Assembly: GCA_038217285.1 (NCBI GenBank)
Contig: JBBQPO010000004.1
Coordinates: 1 to 55,231 of the forward strand
Reading direction: 5' to 3'
DNA from: Chthonomonadales bacterium
GTDB lineage: Bacteria > Armatimonadota > Chthonomonadetes > Chthonomonadales > Chthonomonadaceae
DNA length: 55,231 nt
Shown here piece after piece: positions 34,249 through 46,240 of the stretch. How positions within the stretch are numbered: the first letter of the stretch is position 1; each line of letters starts with the position of its first letter. The translations under genes were made by a program, and so were the position numbers. The notes beneath the pieces are model-generated. The model was not told the origin of the DNA. It saw only the letters and a list, made by a program, of their open reading frames with translations, and did no database searches.

Positions 34249-34277
34249 TTGACAGAGTTGTCGAATTGTGCGAAAAT
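34249..34277 (+). promoter_or_regulatory. Sigma70-type promoter for the GAF gene
   Basis: TTGACA (34249-54), 17-bp spacer, TGcGAAAAT extended -10 (34269-77). Confidence 0.5.
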
Positions 34278-34303
34278 GGGCTAGAGGAGGAGGAAAAGCG
34301 ACT

Positions 34304-36355
34304 ATGACTCACGCGGCCCATCTCCGCGCCGCCGTCCGACGCCTGAATGAGGCGCTTCATGCCGGCATCCCCGCCAGCGATGTGCTGCAAAGCGTCGTCG
34401 AAGAGGCTCGCCGCCTGACCGACGCCGCCAGTGCCGCGCTTTGCCTCCTGACAGAACCCCGCGATATGCTCGATTTCGTGGCGGCCGCCGGGGAGAACGC
34501 CGATGACATCCTCGGCCTGCGTATCCGCGTCGCCGACTCCCTTTCCGAAACCGTCGTCGAGACCGGACAGCCTTTCCTGCTGGATCAGCGCAGTTCCGCC
34601 CCGACAGGCGACCTCTTCTCCGCCGTCGCCCCGACCGAATGGGTCGCCTCCAAAGCCCCGATCCAGAACCTGACCGCCGCTGTCGTCCCGCTCCATGCCG
34701 ACGGCAAGCTGGTCGGTACGCTCTCCGCGCTCAACAAAACCGGGGACGCGGCGAACGGCTCTCCGGTCGAGGCTTTCGGCAGCGATGATCTGGAGACGCT
34801 GGCGTTGCTGGGGGAGTTCGCCACGCTGGCGCGCAAGGTGGAGCGCATCTCGCGTACCGCCCGCGACCAGGGGCGGGAGCTTGACGTCCTCTACGACACG
34901 GCCCGCACTGTCGCCGGCAGCCTCAATGTGCAGCAGGTCATGGACAGCGTTCTTACCGCCCTCTGCTCCCATGTCGAGTATCATGCCGCCGTCCTGTTCC
35001 TGCTCAACGACGAGCGCACCCATCTCTTCATCGCCTCCGAGCGAGGACTGAGCGACGAGGAGCGTGAAATTCAGCTTTCGGTCGAGAGCGGCGAACATGC
35101 CCGTGTCCTTGTCAGTGGGCAGCCGCGCCGTATCAAAGACACCGACGCTTCCGCGGACTTCGTGGACATCACGCTTCGCTCCCGCGCCCTCTCCGCCATG
35201 ATCGCCCCCGTCCGCAGCCGCGACGAGATCCACGGCATCATCGTCGTGACCAGTCTGCAGCGCCGCGCCTACCATAGCGCCGATCTCAAACTTGTCGCCG
35301 CCGTCGCGATGCAGGCTGGGATCGCCATCGAAAACGCCTGGCTCTACGAGGACGCCCAGCGGCAGGCGGAAGAGGCGACCGCCCTCTACGATCTCTCGCA
35401 GCATGTCAACGCCACGCTGCACGAAGACCATGTGCTTAACTTCGTCGCCGACAGTGTTCTGAACCTGCTGAAGGTAGATCGCTTCGCCCTCATGCTCTAC
35501 GACGCCCGCGAGGAGCGCCTGAAGACCAAGCTCTCGCGCAATATGGACGCCGGGGCGTTTCAGGCCATCATGCCGCGCGTCGGGGAGGGCATCGCGGGCT
35601 GGGTGTTCGAGTGGCAGACCCCGCAGGCGGTGGCCGATGTCGCCGCCGACGCCCGCAACCGCACCTCTCCGCTCGATCCGTTCGGCGTCGCCTCCACGCT
35701 CTGTGTGCCCATGCATGTCGGCGAAGAGGTTATCGGCGTGATCCACGCGATGAACAGCAAACGGCGGCTCTTTACGGTCGCCGAGATGGAGCTGCTCTAC
35801 ACCATCGCGAATCAGGCGGCGGTCGCCCTGGTCAACGCGCACCTCTACAAGGAGGCGCGCACCAAATCCCACGAGATGCGCCGCTACTTCCGGCGGGTCG
35901 CGCACGCCATCGGCTCCGCGCTGGAAGAGCAGGATCTGCCGAGGCTGCTCACCGATCTGGCGGTGGAGATCATGCGGGCCGACCGCTGCGCCATCTACCG
36001 GATCGACGGCGAGACGCTCCACCTCCAGGCCGCCAGCGGGTTCCGATCCGCCGTGCCGCCGGACAGCGCCGTGCCGCTCGGACAGGGCCTCTGCGGCCAT
36101 GTGGCCCGGCGCGGCCAGTCGCTGAACCTTCCCGACCTGAACGACGATCCGCGCAGCCAGACCCATCACTGGCTGCAGCGCGACAAACTGACCTCCTACC
36201 TCGGCGTTCCCCTGCGTTCGGCGAGGCGCATCGTGGGCGTCGTCGAGATATATACGCAGGAGCGGCGCGAGTTTAGCCGCGAAGAGATCCAACTACTCTC
36301 CACCTTCGTGCGGCGCGCCCGCGTCGCCGACAAGATCGCCCAGGAATCCGTCTGA
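34304..36355 (+). CDS. Multi-GAF domain protein (about four GAFs), no output domain
   Basis: Repeated GAF signatures: VVPL..LVGTL, IAPV..IHGII..AGIAIENAWLY, CVPM..VIGVI..AAVALVNAHLY, GVPL..IVGVV. Confidence 0.88.
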   Translation: MTHAAHLRAAVRRLNEALHAGIPASDVLQSVVEEARRLTDAASAALCLLTEPRDMLDFVAAAGENADDILGLRIRVADSLSETVVETGQPFLLDQRSSAPTGDLFSAVAPTEWVASKAPIQNLTAAVVPLHADGKLVGTLSALNKTGDAANGSPVEAFGSDDLETLALLGEFATLARKVERISRTARDQGRELDVLYDTARTVAGSLNVQQVMDSVLTALCSHVEYHAAVLFLLNDERTHLFIASERGLSDEEREIQLSVESGEHARVLVSGQPRRIKDTDASADFVDITLRSRALSAMIAPVRSRDEIHGIIVVTSLQRRAYHSADLKLVAAVAMQAGIAIENAWLYEDAQRQAEEATALYDLSQHVNATLHEDHVLNFVADSVLNLLKVDRFALMLYDAREERLKTKLSRNMDAGAFQAIMPRVGEGIAGWVFEWQTPQAVADVAADARNRTSPLDPFGVASTLCVPMHVGEEVIGVIHAMNSKRRLFTVAEMELLYTIANQAAVALVNAHLYKEARTKSHEMRRYFRRVAHAIGSALEEQDLPRLLTDLAVEIMRADRCAIYRIDGETLHLQAASGFRSAVPPDSAVPLGQGLCGHVARRGQSLNLPDLNDDPRSQTHHWLQRDKLTSYLGVPLRSARRIVGVVEIYTQERREFSREEIQLLSTFVRRARVADKIAQESV

Positions 36356-36474: not shown

Positions 36475-37038
<564 letters not shown>

Positions 37039-37040
37039 GC

Positions 37041-37069
37041 TTGTACTCTCCGACAAAATTCTGTATAAT
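37041..37069 (+). promoter_or_regulatory. Sigma70-type promoter upstream of the Hsp70-like gene
   Basis: TTGTAC (37041-46), 17-bp spacer, TATAAT (37064-69). Confidence 0.65.
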
Positions 37070-37111: not shown

Positions 37112-38755
37112 ATGGAGACACACTGGGCCATCGATCTCGGCACAACCAATACACTCATCGCAAAATGGGTCGGAACGCACGCTACCACCGTAGCCCTTGA
37201 AGAGCTGGTAGACTACGAGCCGGCGTGGCGTACCCCGCTCATCCCTTCCGCTATCTATTTTCAGGATGAGGGGCGGGCGATCATCGGGAGGCCCGCGCTC
37301 TCGGCACGGGAGATACTGCACGCGAACGACCTGACCTCGCTGGGGCCGCTGGCGCGCTCTTTCAAGAAGACGCTCGCGCGCGCCAGTCAGCAGCCCGTGG
37401 CGCAGATAGGCTCGCAGACCATCTCCGCCCGGCAGTGCGCCACCGTTTTCATGAAGGAGCTTCTGGACGCGACCGCAGAGTATCAGCGCCAGCGGGCCGA
37501 TCCGAACCGGCCTCGGATGCAGCGGCTCATGGCGGCGCTGCGCTGGTGGCGCAAAGAGGGCCAGGTCACCGATCTGACAATGACCGTGCCGGTGGAGAGT
37601 TACGAGCCTTACCGGGCCGAGCTTTCCAATATCGCGCGCAAGCTCGGCGTCTCGAAGTTTCGTACCCTCGATGAACCCGTCGCCGCCGCGCTCGGCTACG
37701 GCGTCGATCTCACAGAAGAGAAACACCTGCTGGTCGTGGACTTCGGCGGTGGAACGCTCGACCTCGCGGTCGTGCGCACACACTCGCTCGGCGGCAACAC
37801 CGGACGCGACGGCAACCCCGGTCACCACCGGGCGACCCTGCTGGCGGCACGCGGCCTCGTCTACGGCGGCGAGACGGTGGACGAATGGATCGCGGATCTG
37901 GGCGCGGAACGGCTGCGCGCGCATCAGCAGACGCTGCGGCCGCTGCTGCTCTCGCAGGCGGAAGCGATCAAAAAAGATCTCAGCAACAAGGCCTCCATCG
38001 CCGAATCGAGCTACTTTTTGCTGCAGGGCGGCGGTAACATCGAGATCACCCGCGCCGAGTTTCTCAACACGCTGGAAGCGCGTGGCCTCTATGGGACACT
38101 GGAGAAACTGACCGAAGCCACCCTCGACGACTGCGCCCGCGATCTCGATGAGGCCGAGATCGACGCCGTGCTGCTGGTCGGCGGCTCGACTCTGCTGCCG
38201 GGCGTGCGCGAGCTGTTCGAGCGGCTCTTCGGCCCGCAGCGCGTCCACTACTGGGAGCCGTTCGAGGCGGTGGTCAAAGGGGCCGCTATTTTCGGGGCCG
38301 GTTACAGCGTAGATCAGATCGTCCATCACGACTACGCCATTCGTGTCTACAACGACGCCGAGCAGCGGCCGGAGTACGAGCGGCTGATCCGGCGCGGCAC
38401 CGGTTACCCTACCCCGAACCCTTTTCAGACCCGCTACTATGCCGTGACCGAAGGGCAGGCCCTGTTTCGACTGCCCATCTGCGAAGTCGGTTACGGAGGG
38501 CGCACCAGTCTGCCCTGGGCAAAGCGTATGAACGGCAACGAATACTGGCTGCCGAACGGCGCAGAGGAGGGAGAGTGCGTCACGACGTTGAATGAAGGAG
38601 ATGCGTTGAAACTGAGTCCCGCCGGCAGCGGGACGCAGGCCCGACTGCGCATAGACTTCACGATCGACGAAAATCGCTATCTCTGCGCGACGATTCACGA
38701 CCTTCAACTTCAGAAGGACAAGCGCACCGAGGAGCGTGTCGTCATGCTGCGCTGA
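37112..38755 (+). CDS. Atypical Hsp70-family protein (not canonical DnaK)
   Basis: AIDLGTTNT, EPVAAALGYG, VVDFGGGTLD, LLVGGSTLLP; short divergent C-terminus without a helical lid. Confidence 0.9.
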   Translation: METHWAIDLGTTNTLIAKWVGTHATTVALEELVDYEPAWRTPLIPSAIYFQDEGRAIIGRPALSAREILHANDLTSLGPLARSFKKTLARASQQPVAQIGSQTISARQCATVFMKELLDATAEYQRQRADPNRPRMQRLMAALRWWRKEGQVTDLTMTVPVESYEPYRAELSNIARKLGVSKFRTLDEPVAAALGYGVDLTEEKHLLVVDFGGGTLDLAVVRTHSLGGNTGRDGNPGHHRATLLAARGLVYGGETVDEWIADLGAERLRAHQQTLRPLLLSQAEAIKKDLSNKASIAESSYFLLQGGGNIEITRAEFLNTLEARGLYGTLEKLTEATLDDCARDLDEAEIDAVLLVGGSTLLPGVRELFERLFGPQRVHYWEPFEAVVKGAAIFGAGYSVDQIVHHDYAIRVYNDAEQRPEYERLIRRGTGYPTPNPFQTRYYAVTEGQALFRLPICEVGYGGRTSLPWAKRMNGNEYWLPNGAEEGECVTTLNEGDALKLSPAGSGTQARLRIDFTIDENRYLCATIHDLQLQKDKRTEERVVMLR

Positions 38756-38870
38756 AAGACGATCCGTCCGTCTGCGGCGCTTCGCGCAACCCACGTCGTA
38801 GGATCCCCTGCGCTGCATGCAGCGCTCGCGATCTTAACAGACGGTCATCTCGCACAGGGAGTATCAACTC

Positions 38871-39743
38871 ATGTCGGAAGCAAGAGACGCAGGATACGCA
38901 GCCTTGCAGAGCGGTGATTTGAGCGGAGCCATAGCCCACCTGGAGCAGGCTACCGCCGCCGATCCCAACGACTTCCAGACATGCCTCTATCTTGGTGCGG
39001 CGTATGGGCAGGCCGAGCGGCACATGGACGCGGTATCGGTACTGACAAAAGCCGTGCAGCTTCAGCCTGCCAACCCACAGGCCCGGTATAATCTGGCGGT
39101 CGCCCTGGAGAGTGCAGGCTATCGCGAGCAGGCGGTGACGGCGGCGCAGCAGGCGGTTCAACTGCAGCCCGACTACTCCAAAGCACAGGAGATGGTCGCG
39201 CGGCTCACGGGCACACCGACAACGCCGCCTGCCTATGGCCAGCCTGCCGCACCCCAGTATGCTCCACCGCAACAGCCGCCTCCCTATGGGCAGCCTGCCC
39301 CGTATGGACAACCGGCCCAGCCTACGCTCTACGGGCAGCCGCAACAGCCGCAGAACCCTTACAGCCAGCCGCAGCAGCCTTATGGCGTCGAGTCTCGTCC
39401 CGCCTCTTATCAGCCGCAGGGCGCTGCCTCCTACGGCGGACCGCCCAGCGGTATACAGGCCCAGCCCTATGGAGCCGGGCCTATGTTCCAGACAGAGGCT
39501 CCGGCCGCCAATACCGCCCTGATCCTCTCTATCATCGGCTTCTTCTGCTGCGGAATTCTCGCGCCTGTTTCGATAGGTTACGCCATGAAGGCAAAGAAAC
39601 AGGTCGAGCAGAATCCCAATTTGACCGGCGGCGGCAAAGCGACGGCGGCTCTGATTATCGGTATACTGGGAAGCCTGTCCCTGGTGTTAAGCATAGTCTA
39701 TTTCATTGTGGTCATCGGGAAGGTGGCGGCAAGCGGCCACTAG
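38871..39743 (+). CDS. TPR + Pro/Gln/Tyr-rich linker + DUF4190-like membrane domain
   Basis: Three TPRs, YGQP repeats, ALILSIIGFFCCGILAPVSIGYA..G.GKATAALIIGI. Confidence 0.85.
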   Translation: MSEARDAGYAALQSGDLSGAIAHLEQATAADPNDFQTCLYLGAAYGQAERHMDAVSVLTKAVQLQPANPQARYNLAVALESAGYREQAVTAAQQAVQLQPDYSKAQEMVARLTGTPTTPPAYGQPAAPQYAPPQQPPPYGQPAPYGQPAQPTLYGQPQQPQNPYSQPQQPYGVESRPASYQPQGAASYGGPPSGIQAQPYGAGPMFQTEAPAANTALILSIIGFFCCGILAPVSIGYAMKAKKQVEQNPNLTGGGKATAALIIGILGSLSLVLSIVYFIVVIGKVAASGH

Positions 39744-39837
39744 ACGGCGGTAAGAGATTCGGGTGAAAACGCCCCCGGAAATGATACCAGAACCATTTCT
39801 TTCAATAAGGCGTGACAAGAGAGGACAGAAACAAACC

Positions 39838-40809
39838 ATGTCGGCAGAAACAGACGCAGGGCTTCTCGCACTGCAGAGCGGCGATGCCAATGGGGCGATC
39901 GCCCAACTGGAAAAAGCCATCGCCGCCGATCCCAACGACTATCAGGCGCACCAGTACCTTGGCGCAGCCTACGGGCAGACGGGCCGGCAGATGGATGCGG
40001 TCACGACGCTGACGCAGGCCGTCACCCTGCAGCCCTCCAACGCCCAGGCCCGGTACAACCTGGCGATCGCCTACGAAGGCGCAGGCTACCAGGAGCAGGC
40101 GTTGGTGGCGGCGCAACAGGCGCTGCAGCTCCAGCCGGACTATCCCAAAGCGCAGGAAGCAGTCGCGCGCCTCTCGGGCACGCCGACAGCTCCTCCTGCC
40201 TACGGTCAGCCTGCCGCTCCGCAGTATGCTCAGCCCCAACAGCCGACTCCCTCCGGGCAGCCTGCCGCGTATGGGCAACCGGAGCAGCCCGCGCTCTATG
40301 GGCAGCCCCAACAGCCGCAGCACCCTTACGGCCAGCCACAGCAGCCGGCGCCCTATGGCGCTCCGGGTAACTACGGTGTCGCCCCTTATCAGCCCCAGGG
40401 AGCGGCAGCATACGGCGGATCCCCCATGCAAGCCCTCGCCTACAGCGGCGGCATGGACAACACCTCCGGTATGAAAAGCACAGTCCCTCCGGAAGTCGAG
40501 GCACGGGGATGGAACTGGGGCGCTTTCGTTTTCAACTGGATCTGGTGTATGGCGCATGGAATGCCGCTGCTCGGAGTCGGATTGTTGCTCCTGAACTGCA
40601 CGGGGTTGGGCATTGTCGGCTCGATTATCCTCGGAATTCAAGGCAATAAACTCGGCTGGCAGAACCGGCGTTTCGAGAGCGTCGATCATTTCTTCACCGT
40701 GGAGCAGACCTGGGCAAAGTGGGCATTGGGACTTTTCATCTTCTCGATTATCATAGTTGTCCTGGCTGTGCTTTTACCGATCATAACGACCGTCACCCAT
40801 TCGCGATAA
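39838..40809 (+). CDS. TPR + Pro/Gln/Tyr-rich linker + WNWGAF-type (DUF2628-like) membrane domain
   Basis: Paralogous TPR N-terminus; GWNWGAFVFNWIW..GIQGNKLGWQNRRF..QTWAKW. Confidence 0.85.
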   Translation: MSAETDAGLLALQSGDANGAIAQLEKAIAADPNDYQAHQYLGAAYGQTGRQMDAVTTLTQAVTLQPSNAQARYNLAIAYEGAGYQEQALVAAQQALQLQPDYPKAQEAVARLSGTPTAPPAYGQPAAPQYAQPQQPTPSGQPAAYGQPEQPALYGQPQQPQHPYGQPQQPAPYGAPGNYGVAPYQPQGAAAYGGSPMQALAYSGGMDNTSGMKSTVPPEVEARGWNWGAFVFNWIWCMAHGMPLLGVGLLLLNCTGLGIVGSIILGIQGNKLGWQNRRFESVDHFFTVEQTWAKWALGLFIFSIIIVVLAVLLPIITTVTHSR

Positions 40810-40875
40810 CGTCAGCTCTATCCCATCCGGCCCGAAACGTCCGATAGTTTCGGTCGCAGAGAGGTACCATTTTCT

Positions 40876-42525
40876 ATGTCGGCAGAGAGAGACGCAGGGT
40901 TTGCGGCCCTGCAAAACGGTAATGTGGCGGAGGCCATCCCGTATTTAGAGCGGGCCGTCGCCGCAGCGCCCGAGGAGTTTCAGACACTGCTCCATTTAGG
41001 GGCGGCTTACGGGCAGACGGGTCGGCACGCCGATGCCGTCCGAACCGTGATGCAGGCGGTCACACTCCAGCCTTCCAACGCCGCCGCGCGTTATAGCCTG
41101 GCCGTGGCCTATGCCAACGCCGGGCATCAGGAGTATGCCATGACGGCAGCGCAGCAGGCGCTGCAACTGCAGCCGGACGATCCCAGGGCCCAAGAGTTGG
41201 TCGCGCGACTGTCCGGCGCTCCGGCGGCTCCGAACAGCCCGGGGGGCTCCCAATCGTACAGCCAGACGGCCGCTCCGCTCTCTTATGAGCAGGCGGCACC
41301 CCCGAACGCTACGCGACAGCCTGCAGCGCCGACGCCGTATGGTCAGCCTTCGGCCCCTTCCCCGTACGGACAGGCCCAGCCTCCCTCCGCGCCGAACCCG
41401 TCTCCTTACGGCCAGCCGGGACCGACTCCTCCCCCCCTGCAGCCCCAGGCGGGCAGTTATAACCCCGGTCAGACAGCGCCGCCGTCCGGCATGCCCGGCG
41501 CGGCGCCCTATCCGCCGCAGATGGGCGCGGGGAGCAGCTATCAGGGACAGGGCGCTGCTGCCTATGGAGGTTCTCCTGCCGCCACGTACTATACTCCGCC
41601 GCCTCGCCCCGGTGTCGTGCAGATCCCGGACAAGTTCGACATGAAGCAGGCGGTCCGGGACTGGGTTCGGGTCCTCCGGGAGCCGCATGCCTTTTTCCGA
41701 GAGCAGGCGGAGCGCGACGGCTTTAACGCCCCTCTCGCGTTCCTCGTGACTTTCGGCATCGGAGTGGGTATCCTCACCCTCCTCACAGTGATGATCCGAT
41801 TGGTGATCGAGCCTTCCAGCACAGCAAATACGATGGCGCAAATGGGAGTAGGCATCTTCGGCTTCGTCGGCGGCATCACCGGCGCTCTCATGGGCGCGTT
41901 CGTCTGGGGAGGTGTCCTCCACCTGGTCGGTCGCCTGTTCGGCAACCGTCAGCCTTATCAGAAGTCGTTTCGTGTGGCCGCCTATTCCCGCGCACCGCTG
42001 CTGTTCTTCACCGCCTTGACCGCGCTTATCACCCCGTTCCTCATACCGTCTTCCGCATTCACCCCGAGCACGCCGGGGGCGCCGTCGCCATTCGGGCAGA
42101 TGACTCCGGTACAGTTTACCGAGCCGCCGACGACGGGTTTTCCCGGCAGGCGAACCTATAGCACTCCCGGCGGAATGTCGCGGCCGCGCTACGGTGGAAC
42201 GAGTGCACCGAATCCCTTCGACAGTCCAGCTATGAAGAAACTGATGCAAGCCTATATCATCATCGGGCCTATTACATTGGTGGGTATGATCTGGGTCTGG
42301 TGTCTGCAGGCCATCGGGTTGCGGTACGCGCAAAACCTTTCGCCCGGCAGCGCAGCGGGCACGGTTTTTCTCGCGCTTCTGCTGCCCTTCCTGCTGTTGA
42401 TCGCGCTGGGCGTTGTGTTCGGCCTGATCATCGCGGCGGCTATCGGTGCCTCGCACCGCTCGCCCAGCTTTACAGGCGTGCTTTCTCTGATTCGGCCTGG
42501 TCTGGCGGTATGGCGTGGATACTGA
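40876..42525 (+). CDS. TPR + Pro/Gln/Tyr-rich linker + Yip1-like membrane domain
   Basis: Paralogous TPR N-terminus; VLREPHAFF, HLVGRLFG..YQKSFRVAAYS, GLRYAQNLS. Confidence 0.85.
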   Translation: MSAERDAGFAALQNGNVAEAIPYLERAVAAAPEEFQTLLHLGAAYGQTGRHADAVRTVMQAVTLQPSNAAARYSLAVAYANAGHQEYAMTAAQQALQLQPDDPRAQELVARLSGAPAAPNSPGGSQSYSQTAAPLSYEQAAPPNATRQPAAPTPYGQPSAPSPYGQAQPPSAPNPSPYGQPGPTPPPLQPQAGSYNPGQTAPPSGMPGAAPYPPQMGAGSSYQGQGAAAYGGSPAATYYTPPPRPGVVQIPDKFDMKQAVRDWVRVLREPHAFFREQAERDGFNAPLAFLVTFGIGVGILTLLTVMIRLVIEPSSTANTMAQMGVGIFGFVGGITGALMGAFVWGGVLHLVGRLFGNRQPYQKSFRVAAYSRAPLLFFTALTALITPFLIPSSAFTPSTPGAPSPFGQMTPVQFTEPPTTGFPGRRTYSTPGGMSRPRYGGTSAPNPFDSPAMKKLMQAYIIIGPITLVGMIWVWCLQAIGLRYAQNLSPGSAAGTVFLALLLPFLLLIALGVVFGLIIAAAIGASHRSPSFTGVLSLIRPGLAVWRGY

Positions 42526-43924
42526 AACGAGTTTGAAAGAAGGGCCGACCACGCCGCGCCTGCTGCGCTCCGAGCGCTCCATTCATGCTGCCATCGAGAT
42601 CTATGCCCGCTGGCAGGAGGAGCGGGATCGCACGCCTCTGGACAGGGTCGTCGGCGCGGAGTTCCGTTCGCGCCGGTATCTCAACGCGGCCGAACGCCGC
42701 TGGGCTGCCGAAGCCCTCTATGGCAGTGTGCGCTATCTGCGCCGCCAGCGCCGCCTCCTGGAGATCCTGGAGCGGCAGGACAGCCCGGAAACACGCCTGC
42801 GCCTGTGGGCGGAAGCCGATGCCGGTGACGAGACGGTGCTCGCCGCCTTCGCTCGCCTCCCGGACCCACAGACGCCCCGCGACTATCTGCGGATCACCCT
42901 CTCGTTCCCCGACGATATGGCGACGACCCTGGAGACCCTGCTGGGCACGCAGGCCGTCGCCGCCGGCAAGGCTTTCAACGAACAGGCCCCTACGACGCTG
43001 CGCCTGAACCCGCTGCGCGCCGACCGCCAGCGCGTTCGCACCGCGATCCCCGACCTCACGCCGACACAGTTCTCGCCCTGGGGCCTGGAACTGCCGCACC
43101 GCGTCAATATCTACGACCAGCCCGGCTTCCGGGCCGGATGGTACGAGGTACAGGAAGAGGCGAGCCAACTGGCCGCTCTGCTGACGAATGTGCTGCCGGG
43201 CCAGACGGTCGTGGACGTCGGAGCCGGAGCCGGAGGCAAGACGCTGCCGCTGGCCGCCCTGATGGAGAATAAGGGGCGCCTCGTCGCCCTCGACATCGCC
43301 CTCCCACGTCTGGAAGAGCTGCAGGAGCGGGCACACCGCGCCGGGGTCTCGAAGATGGAGATCATCGAGCTGGAAGCCAATGCCGAAGGGGTCTGGCGAC
43401 GCGACGGCGAAGCCCGCAAGGTGTTGCTCGGCCTCAATGGCAGCGCCGACCATGTCCTGCTCGATGCCCCCTGCACCGGCAGCGGCGTGCTGCGGCGCAG
43501 CCCGGATGCGAAATGGCGACTGCACGACCGCCCGGTGCTCGCTCGCCTTCAGCGTACACTGCTGGCCCAGGCGTCGCTGCTGGTCGCCCCCAACGGCTAT
43601 CTGCACTATACCACCTGCTCCTTCGAGCCGGAACAGAACGAACGGATCATCGAGGAGTTCCTGGCGTCGGCGGAAGGCAAGGAGTTCGCGATCGTTCCCG
43701 TCGTCGGACGTCTGATCGCCGCCTGCGGGCGGGCCGAACAGATGGCGAAACAGCCGCCGCGCCGAAATCGGCCTGCCGAGGAAACGACGCCGAAGCCCCC
43801 TGCCCCCACTCCGGAGATGCGACAGCGCTTCGCCGCGCTGACCGATGGCCCCTATCTGCGCACCTGGCCGCACCGCGATGGTCTGGACGCTTTCTTCGGC
43901 GCAACCCTCCAACGCAAAGCATGA
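42515..43924 (+). CDS. RsmB/NOP2-family RNA m5C methyltransferase
   Basis: YEVQEEASQL, VVDVGAGAGGKT, LLDAPCTGSG..RRSPD, YTTCS, DAFF. Confidence 0.9.
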   Translation: MDTETSLKEGPTTPRLLRSERSIHAAIEIYARWQEERDRTPLDRVVGAEFRSRRYLNAAERRWAAEALYGSVRYLRRQRRLLEILERQDSPETRLRLWAEADAGDETVLAAFARLPDPQTPRDYLRITLSFPDDMATTLETLLGTQAVAAGKAFNEQAPTTLRLNPLRADRQRVRTAIPDLTPTQFSPWGLELPHRVNIYDQPGFRAGWYEVQEEASQLAALLTNVLPGQTVVDVGAGAGGKTLPLAALMENKGRLVALDIALPRLEELQERAHRAGVSKMEIIELEANAEGVWRRDGEARKVLLGLNGSADHVLLDAPCTGSGVLRRSPDAKWRLHDRPVLARLQRTLLAQASLLVAPNGYLHYTTCSFEPEQNERIIEEFLASAEGKEFAIVPVVGRLIAACGRAEQMAKQPPRRNRPAEETTPKPPAPTPEMRQRFAALTDGPYLRTWPHRDGLDAFFGATLQRKA

Positions 43925-44661
43925 TCCTTCGCGAACAGGCCGAACAAAACGTACGGGAAGCGCGTATTCTGTATGAGAATGACCAACGGGAAGAGGCGAT
44001 CACACTGCAGCGCCGTGGCGCGCTGCAGTACGCCACGGCCATGCGGGACGAAGAGGAGCCTGCGCCCGAGGCGTGGCGGATTCGCGCTCTGGCCTGCCGC
44101 GACCTGGGCGACTACCTGACGGCGGTCGAAGCCTATTCCGAAGCCGCCACCTACTACCAGGAGGCGACCGACTGCTATACCGCCATAGGCAGCGAAGAGG
44201 GCGAAATCGCGGCGCGCGACTGCGCTGCCAGGGTTCTGTCGGTCGTCGCAGCGCTGCGCGCCCGACCGGAGGAGCGCCTGCATCTTTTAACCGCTCGCTA
44301 TGAGCGGCAGCGACAGCAACTGGCCCTGGAGCCTGCCACAGAAGCATTGCAGGCCGAGTGCTGCGCCCATATCGCCCGAATCTTCCAGCGGCGGGATCGG
44401 CCGGACGAAGCCATCGCGCACTACCTGGAGGCGCTGCGACTCTATGCCCTGACGCCGCAGGACGAGAACGGACTGGCCTGTGCGGAGTGCCATCATCGCC
44501 TTGCCGGCCTTTATGTGGCTGCGCTGGACGAGCCGGAGCAGGCGGCCGGCCACTATGGCGAGGCTATCGCGCTCTATACGGCCTACGAGCCGGTCGTGCA
44601 CGGCGAACAGACGGCGCTCGCCCTGTGCCTGCGTGCGCTGGAAATGCTGAAAGAGCCCTAA
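43921..44661 (+). CDS. TPR-like helical hypothetical protein
   Basis: ATGA overlap with the RsmB-like gene; TPR-like helices (EAATYYQEA, EAIAHYLEAL, AAGHYGEAIALY). Confidence 0.75.
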   Translation: MILREQAEQNVREARILYENDQREEAITLQRRGALQYATAMRDEEEPAPEAWRIRALACRDLGDYLTAVEAYSEAATYYQEATDCYTAIGSEEGEIAARDCAARVLSVVAALRARPEERLHLLTARYERQRQQLALEPATEALQAECCAHIARIFQRRDRPDEAIAHYLEALRLYALTPQDENGLACAECHHRLAGLYVAALDEPEQAAGHYGEAIALYTAYEPVVHGEQTALALCLRALEMLKEP

Positions 44662-44722
44662 ACAGGTTGGCCGCGTCGTCCCCTGGCGTTCTCCTGTCGG
44701 GATGCTGGTTAGAAAGGTCGTT

Positions 44723-45451
44723 ATGTCTGTACCACCCGCGCGTATCTATACGCTGCCGCTTTTTCCGCTGAACCACGTCTTGTTTCCGCAGTTTTTGCTC
44801 CAGCTTCAGGTTTTCGAGGAGCGCTATCTGGCGATGATCGGCGGCTGTATCGAACGCAATGAGCCGTTCGGCGTGGTGCTGATTCGAGAGGGCGACGAGG
44901 TGGGTGCGCCGGCCGTTCCGCACGACATCGGCTGCGTGATGCAGATACAGAAGGTCGAGCATCAGGACGACGGTCGGATGCATCTGATCGCCGCCGCCAG
45001 CGGACGCTTCCGCATTCTGGAGTATATGGAGGCGGATCTGCCCTATCTGCTGGGGCGGGTCGAGGACGTGGCCGATCTGCCGGAATCGCGCGAGGGCCTG
45101 GAAGAGACCGTCACAGAACTCACCACGCTGTTTCGCCGCTATCTCGGCCTGCTGGCGGATCGGGCGCGGACAGTGCAGCCCGAACTCGAACTCCCGACCG
45201 ATCCTTCGCTGTTGTCGTTCTGCGTGGCCTATATCATTCAGGTTCCGCTAATGGTGCATCAGCACATGCTCGAAACCACCGACGCGGGAGCGCGCATCGC
45301 CGAGGAGCTGGAATATCTCCGCGAGCACGTCGCCTCCCTGGAGACGGAACGCGAAGAGCTGGAAGAGGAGTTGCGTCGCGCCACCACCTATCTCCCCCTG
45401 GAGCCCGCCGCCGACCGCTGGAAAGAGTACGGCGTCGAGTCCCGGAACTAG
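44723..45451 (+). CDS. Stand-alone Lon protease N-terminal (substrate-binding) domain protein
   Basis: LPLFPLNHVLFP, VFEERY, FGVVLIREG, DGRM..GRFRI; no AAA+ or protease domain. Confidence 0.9.
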   Translation: MSVPPARIYTLPLFPLNHVLFPQFLLQLQVFEERYLAMIGGCIERNEPFGVVLIREGDEVGAPAVPHDIGCVMQIQKVEHQDDGRMHLIAAASGRFRILEYMEADLPYLLGRVEDVADLPESREGLEETVTELTTLFRRYLGLLADRARTVQPELELPTDPSLLSFCVAYIIQVPLMVHQHMLETTDAGARIAEELEYLREHVASLETEREELEEELRRATTYLPLEPAADRWKEYGVESRN

Positions 45452-45512
45452 ATCCTCCGCTTTAAATGACTATGTGCTGGGTATAGACACGGGTACGAAA
45501 GGAGGGGCAAAC

Positions 45513-45776
45513 ATGGCGCAGGCAACACTGACCCAAGTCCTGAGCGAGATCAAGACGCTGGAAGCGGACGAACTACGGGAAGTGGAACGCACGGTGCGGC
45601 AACTTCTGGCTACTCCGGAAAAAGCAGCGGAGCGGGAGGCGGTGCTTCGTGTATTGCAGGACTCGGGACTGGTGAAAGAGGTCAAAAGGCCGCCCATGGA
45701 CGCGGATCGCGAACGCCCGCTCATTTCGATTCAGGGCAAGCCGCTCTCGGAAACGATCATCGAGGAACGGGTATAG
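45513..45776 (+). CDS. Putative antitoxin (VapB-like)
   Basis: Small gene overlapping the PIN gene by 1 nt; C-terminal GKPLSETIIEER typical of such antitoxins; GGAGG SD. Confidence 0.75.
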   Translation: MAQATLTQVLSEIKTLEADELREVERTVRQLLATPEKAAEREAVLRVLQDSGLVKEVKRPPMDADRERPLISIQGKPLSETIIEERV

Positions 45777-46240
45777 TGGCAATCTACTATCCCGATTCCA
45801 GCGCACTCTGCAAACGCTATGTCGCGGAAGTCGGCTCGGCGTGGTTGAGAGCATTACTTGCGCCAACGACGGGATGCACGGTGGTCATCGGGCGCATGAC
45901 GACCGTGGAAATCATCGCGGCCCTCTCCCGCCGGGAACGCGCAGGTTCGCTCACGTCTGCGGATGCAACACTGGCCCGCGCCGACTTCCGCTCCGACTTG
46001 TCTCACGAGTATCAGGTCGTGGAAATAACCGAGACAATTGCCGATTATGCCATGCAATTGGCAGAGACACACAAACTACGTGGCTACGATGCAGTGCAAC
46101 TTGCAGCGGCATTGAGTGTGAATACGCAGTTGCTTGCCGCCGCACAATCACCGCTCATTTTAATCTCGGCAGACGCGGAATTGAACGCCGCTGCATCTGA
46201 CGAAGGGCTGCACGTCGAAGATCCCAATACGCATCCCTGA
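45776..46240 (+). CDS. vapC: PIN-domain toxin (VapC family)
   Basis: DSSALCKRY..E.GS, VEIIAAL, LRGYDAVQLAAAL, SAD.EL..AA..EGL.V.DP. Confidence 0.9.
   Translation: MAIYYPDSSALCKRYVAEVGSAWLRALLAPTTGCTVVIGRMTTVEIIAALSRRERAGSLTSADATLARADFRSDLSHEYQVVEITETIADYAMQLAETHKLRGYDAVQLAAALSVNTQLLAAAQSPLILISADAELNAAASDEGLHVEDPNTHP

Follow-up and report, generated by a model that had tools for sequence, protein, structure and literature searches.

The window, a stretch of 55,231 nucleotides (nt) from a Chthonomonadales soil bacterium of the family Chthonomonadaceae (assembly GCA_038217285.1, contig JBBQPO010000004.1, positions 1 to 55,231 of the forward strand), contains a gene encoding an Hsp70 without the alpha-helical lid, followed by three genes whose products share a tetratricopeptide repeat (TPR) head and end in different membrane anchors. 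The main new result is that, in other phyla, lid-less Hsp70s related to this one are linked or fused to HEAT-repeat proteins. The reading that we favour, tentatively, is that the TPR proteins, tethered to the membrane, act as adaptors or regulators for the lid-less Hsp70, and that they are the TPR variant of a broader Hsp70-solenoid module, apparently widespread and not described before. The four open reading frames (ORFs), already placed by a first-pass annotation made from the sequence alone, are on the same strand and are separated by 115, 94 and 66 nt:

37112..38755, + strand: Hsp70, 547 aa (Pfam, alignment, AlphaFold2 (AF2) model, Foldseek)
38871..39743, + strand: TPR-A, 290 aa (Pfam, alignment, AF2 model, hydropathy)
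39838..40809, + strand: TPR-B, 323 aa (Pfam, alignment, language-model look-up, hydropathy)
40876..42525, + strand: TPR-C, 549 aa (Pfam Yip1 at 2.7e-21, hydropathy)

The Hsp70 shows a nucleotide-binding domain (NBD, residues ~1-397) and the beta part of the substrate-binding domain (SBD-beta, residues ~400-547). The Pfam HSP70 match (95.5 bits, cut-off 20.6) is confined to residues 7-397 and to profile positions 4-374 of 599; in NCBIfam the matching models are HscA and DnaK, with scores far under the cut-offs. In the AF2 model, which has a mean confidence (pLDDT) of 87.6 from a 38-row alignment, the SBD-beta strands extend from residue 399 to 545 with pLDDT ~86-95, and Foldseek matches this model best to full-length, ATP-state DnaK and BiP (E ~1e-30, TM ~0.7). 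The chain stops at residue 547, directly past the last strand, and both the alpha-helical lid (SBD-alpha) and the C-terminal tail are absent, which bears out the term lid-less used by the first-pass annotation. The phosphate-1, phosphate-2 and adenosine motifs (DLGTTNT, VVDFGGGTLD and LVGGSTLLPG, respectively) are intact and conserved in alignment A2. The same alignment shows no acidic C-terminus of the EEVD type: the protein ends in ERVVMLR, and VVxLR is a conserved beta-strand end across this Hsp70 family. The close homologues bearing a name are labelled as Chthonomonadaceae or as Armatimonadota bacterium. The NBD also contains a helical insertion, QRQRADPNRPRMQRLMAALRWWRKEG, at residues ~117-146 (window 37460-37550), modelled with lower confidence; in A2 it aligns without gaps only to the closest Armatimonadota-type sequences (named or inferred), and a few others have shorter insertions.

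A scan of 1.84 billion representatives at E<=1e-30 gave a lid-less Hsp70 family of 142 representatives, mostly of 500-570 aa, which align over their full length, SBD-beta included. Nineteen longer relatives were tested: 13 have C-terminal HEAT repeats, two have WD40 and four show nothing more. No fusion longer than 958 aa was scored, which is weak evidence. The genomic context was surveyed at 80 loci from named genomes, many of which contain a gene of 365-485 aa located 6-23 nt after the Hsp70 gene. Among 15 of these tightly linked downstream genes that were tested, 13 match HEAT_2 (11 above the Pfam cut-off), and the other two encode a TPR protein, in a Chthonomonas calidirosea metagenome-assembled genome, and a cytochrome b/c fusion, in Fimbriimonadia. 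A hidden Markov model (HMM) built from the 13 HEAT partners detects partners adjacent to the Hsp70 at 24 of the 80 loci, and in 22 these are downstream on the same strand or fused. Hsp70-HEAT linkage is present in Gemmatimonadota, Acidobacteriota, Planctomycetota, Chloroflexota and Armatimonadota; in the last phylum, families other than that of the window show HEAT partners in five of 16 loci, with up to three in tandem. Tandem HEAT arrays contain four copies in L060, three copies in each of L080 and L065, and two copies in each of L052, L063 and L102. A hydropathy scan shows a hydrophobic segment at or near the N-terminus in five of the 13 modelled HEAT partners, and the same holds for some of the tandem copies. 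The arrays of three to four copies span L060 3781-9675, L080 1665-5661, L065 6610-10939 and L133 2836-6806; their hosts belong to Acidobacteriota, Planctomycetota and another Armatimonadota family, and many of the HEAT copies share an N-domain motif of the type ExGDxxFD.

The recurrent features of these loci are, then, an Hsp70 of ~520-550 aa composed of NBD and SBD-beta and homologous over its full length, and one or more co-oriented solenoid genes directly downstream, often in tandem. Apart from generic HEAT models, neither NCBIfam nor PADLOC has a family that matches the HEAT partners. A full-text search of open-access papers and preprints gave no description of either an Hsp70-TPR or an Hsp70-HEAT module, and lid-less forms are not described in the available portions of PMC8265645 and PMC4319316. 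The HEAT-partner HMM has no match in the Chthonomonadales loci (L001-L043), and no HEAT partner is found in a 45-row cyanobacterial clade. At the three loci tested from heterocystous and other cyanobacteria (L064, L066 and L098), a gene encoding a UvdE UV-endonuclease is located just upstream of the lid-less Hsp70 gene, on the same strand, and a HEAT partner is missing.

A quick IQ-TREE tree of the Hsp70, made from 102 rows with a midpoint root and without an outgroup, places the Armatimonadota clade (17 rows, support 100) inside a clade of 42 rows (support 98) that also contains two HEAT-linked clades, and a third HEAT-linked clade, from Chloroflexota, is across the root. This distribution fits a HEAT partner that was ancestral and lost in Chthonomonadales, with its slot later taken by TPR genes in one family; the order of these events is our inference.

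TPR-A, TPR-B and TPR-C have a common head of 115 aa, with 71% and 62% identity of the other two to head A by tblastn, followed in all three by a linker rich in P, Q, Y and G, so that the one head and P/Q/Y linker reported by the first-pass annotation for the three genes are confirmed. These are the only three close copies of the head in the 6.2-Mb genome, the next tblastn match being 35% identical. The head matches TPR families of Pfam, and in the AF2 model of TPR-A it contains seven helices in residues 3-113, forming three TPRs plus a capping helix, with pLDDT >93. The linkers of the TPR-anchor proteins span 82-248 aa. That of TPR-C is longer than those of TPR-A and TPR-B, and residues 120-207 of TPR-A are modelled as disordered. 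The C-terminal membrane domains are of three different types, also as first described. TPR-A shows a helical DUF4190 domain at residues 211-288 (36.3 bits, Pfam cut-off 35); TPR-B shows a WNWGAF-type anchor with two hydrophobic segments, which has no Pfam match and is likened to DUF2628 at 0.89 by the language-model look-up, as a lead only; and TPR-C shows a Yip1 domain with five hydrophobic segments (76.6 bits, Pfam cut-off 28.6). None of the three proteins has a signal-peptide-like segment (maximum 19-aa hydropathy within the first 60 residues <=0.61), which suggests that the heads are cytoplasmic. A K/R-rich stretch precedes the first Yip1 helix, and the positive-inside analysis favours cytoplasmic heads for this form.

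The head family contains 89 proteins at >=58% identity, the next matches being at <=48%, and all members with names belong to Chthonomonadaceae. According to precomputed Pfam lists, the anchor is Yip1 in 32 of the 89 heads, DUF4190 in 23, RDD in three and none of these in 31; the last group includes a cluster of 13 WNWGAF-type proteins and two fragments. BLAST single-linkage clustering of the anchors merged Yip1, DUF4190 and RDD and was not used, save for the separate 13-member WNWGAF cluster. In three genomes of the same genus (G001, G002 and G004) the layout is Hsp70, head A with DUF4190, head B with DUF4190, head C with Yip1, and RsmB; G004 has an additional DUF4190 copy upstream. The head of TPR-B in the window is 89-92% identical to these orthologues, but it is on a WNWGAF anchor and theirs are on DUF4190. 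A DNA alignment of TPR-B with its G002 orthologue places the change of anchor at one point, with head and linker matching until a GAAAYGG motif:

40420..40430, + strand: anchor-swap breakpoint in the TPR-B gene, approximate, where the likeness stops (DNA alignment with the G002 orthologue)

A head tree was built with FastTree from 78 rows of 90 (12 were dropped when the head-start pattern failed) and 116 columns, and many of its forks are unresolved. In this tree the A-type heads (16 rows) are all on DUF4190 and the C-type heads (11 rows) are all on Yip1, while the B-type clade, with 15 rows on short branches, contains seven WNWGAF, five DUF4190 and three Yip1 anchors. The anchor label requires 21 changes on the tree, the minimum possible being four. 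Anchor swapping is therefore real, and the modularity that the first-pass annotation saw in the swapped C-terminal domains holds among close relatives, where orthologous heads are on differing anchors. The linker motif GAA.YGG was considered as a deep functional motif or ligand site and rejected, since it is found in close relatives only; we treat it as a probable recombination junction. In another genome (L124, G025:C2, 1806-4272), the neighbouring paralogues P0348 and P0372, of DUF4190 and Yip1 type, have near-identical heads (tree support 100, branch lengths 0 and 0.08), which suggests a recent duplication or gene conversion of the head.

The distribution of both partners was determined in 61 related genomes, including that of the window, counting the Hsp70 at E<=1e-30 and the TPR head at E<=1e-15. 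The Hsp70 is single-copy and present in 54 of the 61: 34 of 36 in the same family, 19 of 22 in the sister family and none of two in a third family. An even sample of the phylum contains it in 41 of 201 genomes (E<=1e-60), a patchy distribution. The TPR head is present in 39 of the 61 genomes. In the genome of the window, and in 25 of 33 same-family genomes that could be assessed (17 of 22 genera), a head gene starts 17-553 nt downstream of the Hsp70 gene on the same strand; G012, where a contig end truncates the Hsp70 gene, was left out of this count. The shortest Hsp70-TPR gaps are 16-36 nt. TPR-head genes were not seen in one well-assembled genome without the Hsp70. The neighbourhood pointed out by the first-pass annotation is thus conserved within the family; in the sister family the adjacency is found in none of 19 genomes. 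The 11 sister-family loci examined at the ORF level mostly show a convergent next sizeable ORF, of ~760-785 aa in five of them. In G007, a single-contig genome of 3.4 Mb, the first ~39 residues of the Hsp70 orthologue are in another frame (L125, 606-719 versus 722-2236), which may be a frameshift or an assembly error.

The genome of the window shows seven J-domain matches, none of them on the contig of the window. Its three other Hsp70 paralogues, on C84, C35 and C16, are each accompanied on the same strand, at ~1.3 kb or less, by a J-domain gene, and the adjacent J-domain gene typical of canonical DnaK and HscA is missing at the lid-less Hsp70. The paralogue loci of this genome (G000) are at C84 10784-12173, C35 3-1720 and C16 3811-8517, and at C16 an ORF of 730 aa with HEAT repeats is convergent to the Hsp70 paralogue.

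The adaptor reading is based on the following observations: the adjacency in most same-family genomes, with short gaps, co-orientation and no terminator-like site between the genes; the linkage or fusion of related Hsp70s to HEAT partners elsewhere, which is an argument by analogy; the missing J-domain gene, unlike the three paralogues; the hydrophobic segment with which some HEAT partners start; the supported clade that Armatimonadota Hsp70s share with two HEAT-linked clades; and the heads unseen in a well-assembled genome without the Hsp70. The proposed module would consist of a lid-less Hsp70 ATPase and, from genes that immediately follow its own, one to four alpha-solenoid paralogues in tandem. 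Elsewhere in Armatimonadota and in other phyla, this solenoid would be a HEAT protein, in some cases with a hydrophobic N-terminus, or a HEAT region fused to the Hsp70, and in Chthonomonadaceae the slot would be taken by a three-TPR head, a disordered linker of 90-170 aa and an interchangeable C-terminal membrane anchor. The heads would lie on the cytoplasmic face of the membrane and bind the Hsp70 as adaptors or regulators, in the place held by J-domain co-chaperones for the other Hsp70s of the genome, and the anchor type would set the membrane site or complex where the ATPase acts. A co-fold of the full Hsp70 (A2) with the TPR-A head, residues 1-120 (A3), gave a score of 0.00 against a mark of 0.32, without controls, and weighs neither way. 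The first-pass annotation had proposed membrane receptors that recruit a common cytoplasmic partner, possibly this Hsp70; the adjacency within the family and the HEAT partners and fusions in the same slot elsewhere argue, by context, for a link to the Hsp70.

Several results weigh against the adaptor reading. The adjacency is missing in eight of the 33 same-family genomes: the heads are located only away from the Hsp70 in G008, G023, G026 and G030, and no head match is found in G015 (99% complete), G024 (96%), G033 (87%) and G035 (89%). The sister family shows that the Hsp70 occurs without TPR genes, and the family-wide adjacency may come from a single ancestral insertion. No Hsp70-TPR fusion was found among the 19 long relatives tested. 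TPR and HEAT are not homologous, so the cross-phylum argument is one of analogy, and for the conserved N-domain of the HEAT partners the genome of the window shows generic HEAT matches only, at profile positions 209-402. The DUF4190 form has four K/R in the inter-helix loop, which makes the positive-inside rule ambiguous or contrary for this form. Finally, synteny with the Hsp70 is about as strong for the gene rsmB as for the TPR genes. In the window rsmB begins a block of three further genes on the same strand:

42515..43924, + strand: RsmB/F-like 16S rRNA m5C methyltransferase (Pfam, NCBIfam, synteny)
43930..44661, + strand: soluble TPR protein (Pfam, synteny)
44702..45451, + strand: stand-alone LON substrate-binding-domain protein, 249 aa, 119 bits (Pfam, synteny)

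The start of the RsmB/F-like gene overlaps the end of TPR-C by 11 nt and belongs to the same syntenic block; the soluble TPR gene and the LON-domain gene are co-oriented and syntenic with rsmB in several genera. Across genera the recurrent backbone is cupin, hsp70, zero to three TPR genes, rsmB, TPR243 and LonN, and in G024 rsmB comes directly after hsp70. This backbone gives the serious rival of the adaptor reading, and a quite possible one: that the TPR proteins are an independent, fast-shuffling membrane family, inserted once between hsp70 and rsmB in the ancestor of the family and duplicated in place, with inherited synteny and no functional tie to the Hsp70. It agrees with the greater age and wider distribution of the Hsp70 relative to the TPR heads and with the head genes located away from the Hsp70 in the four genomes named above and in others. 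It accounts less well for the short gaps, the co-orientation and the lack of terminator-like sites, for the tandem solenoid genes that fill the same slot behind related Hsp70s in at least five phyla, fusions included, and for a lid-less Hsp70 without a J-domain gene.

An improbable alternative is that the TPR-anchor proteins are clients, substrates that need the Hsp70 for solubility or membrane insertion, and not adaptors. The long disordered linkers have an aggregation-prone composition, the C-terminal anchors would imply post-translational insertion, and the Hsp70 retains SBD-beta, all of which a client could explain; but an order-wide Hsp70 dedicated to family-specific clients is unlikely, the Hsp70 is present where such clients are absent, and the HEAT partners elsewhere have no such linkers.

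Docking of the eukaryotic type, in which the head would hold the Hsp70 by its C-terminal tail with a carboxylate clamp, in the manner of Hop, CHIP or Tom70, is very unlikely and is largely refuted by sequence. The head does have the three TPRs and capping helix of a clamp domain, and its size, and SGTA is among its solved-structure matches (1.4e-8); the head is closest by sequence, among these matches, to consensus TPR, OGT, PEX5 and MamA. The five clamp residues of Hop TPR1, K/N/N/K/R, correspond in the heads to R/T, Y/L/F, Y/H, Q and N, of which only N74 is conserved at >=90% (78 heads), and the Hsp70, ending in VVMLR, offers no EEVD; the analogy with Hop and Tom70 drawn by the first-pass annotation falls on both counts. 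The likeness to the eukaryotic clamp receptors (Hop, CHIP, Tom70 and Sec72) is that of a three-TPR module, partly membrane-anchored, with a proposed Hsp70 partner; without the EEVD tail and the clamp residues, the link to Hsp70 would be of independent origin, and the binding here is a prediction.

The first-pass annotation also raised a role in defence, and we hold an anti-phage or conflict system built on an Hsp70-like ATPase to be very unlikely here. In its favour, the available text of PMC11090510 describes CnuD of the CoCoNuT systems as an Hsp70-like NBD and SBD with HEAT-like repeats, an alpha-solenoid joined to an Hsp70 as in the modules above, tandem shuffling paralogues resemble diversifying systems, and PADLOC-DB 2.0 gives a weak match of the locus to PDC-M61B (2.4e-4) and to a generic TPR model (4e-3 or weaker). 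No other PADLOC match was obtained for the proteins of the locus or, beyond generic HEAT models, for the HEAT partners. CnuD, as far as that text describes it, is found together with McrBC-like GTPases, and its Walker A-like motifs are degenerate (PMC11090510), a difference from the present Hsp70, with its intact ATPase motifs and no gene for an McrB-like GTPase, McrC (DUF2357) or HEPN RNase among its neighbours in the window. None of the McrB, McrC and HEPN families is found either in 47 flanking ORFs from 13 Hsp70-HEAT loci, which show varied housekeeping genes, and because of this the Hsp70-HEAT modules are not of the CnuD context. The portion available of Kaur et al. 2020 (PMC7159879) places HSP70 in conflict systems centred on a GTPase, where its partners carry fusions to DnaJ or TPR; such a GTPase is missing in this locus. 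The G+C content is unremarkable, and the neighbours in the window are GAF, cupin, RsmB, TPR, LonN and housekeeping genes. The Hsp70 is apparently vertically inherited: it is single-copy, and the two families form separate groups on its tree, as expected from vertical descent.

Among known systems, the nearest bacterial precedent is presumably Escherichia coli HscC (Hsc62), which pairs an atypical Hsp70 with DjlC, a J-protein anchored in the membrane. The likeness covers the atypical Hsp70, the reduced C-terminal region and the gene beside a membrane-anchored cofactor; the cofactor here differs in having a TPR head and no J domain, and HscC-type models are absent from the NCBIfam matches. The Hsp70-HEAT pairs and fusions share with the locus a homologous Hsp70 (28-47% identical, full length), the gene order, the tandem partners and, in some, membrane tethering; the locus differs from them in its TPR partner, its interchangeable anchor, C-terminal here and N-terminal in the HEAT proteins, and its long disordered linker. 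The small membrane domains DUF4190, Yip1 and RDD, recognised by Pfam, and DUF2628, by the lead only, are here alternative tails of one soluble head family.

The adaptor reading can be extended to a membrane chaperone system of many phyla, in which a lid-less Hsp70 would obtain its specificity from interchangeable, tethered solenoid arrays and not from J-proteins, the TPR version would be an independent bacterial counterpart of the Hsp70 docking receptors of eukaryotic organelle membranes, and anchor recombination at the linker motif would re-target the ATPase; this extension is possible but less likely than not. Non-canonical bacterial Hsp70s are poorly understood, and the locus raises the question of how such a protein is targeted and regulated without a lid and a dedicated J-protein. 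Together with the Hsp70-HEAT pairs and fusions, it provides a concrete, testable pairing across at least six phyla, which would also give a first functional handle on the DUF4190, DUF2628, RDD and Yip1-type membrane domains of bacteria. The anchor swap at a defined breakpoint is a clear natural case of domain shuffling among tandem paralogues.

Upstream of the Hsp70 gene the sequence reads as follows:

37041..37069, + strand: promoter-like site, TTGTAC (37041-37046), 17-nt spacer, TATAAT (37064-37069), read from the sequence

The -10 element is perfect and the -35 element is weak, with three of six positions matching, and a consensus promoter scan did not list the site; the good promoter of the first-pass annotation is therefore reduced to a good -10. 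The same scan gave no terminator-like sites on the + strand between hsp70 and the TPR genes. The start of TPR-B is most likely ATG 39838 and not GTG 39763, because from this ATG the protein begins with MSAETDAG, like its paralogues, and GAGAGGA is located upstream. Further upstream, the window contains a gene for a protein of 695 aa with four GAF domains and no recognised output domain (34268-36355), followed by a small cupin or lyxose-isomerase-like gene (36478-37038). Downstream of the LON-domain gene, an ORF of 100 aa abuts an ORF of 154 aa with a PIN domain (PIN 1.1e-6) at 45474-46240, and the two resemble a toxin-antitoxin pair of the VapBC type.

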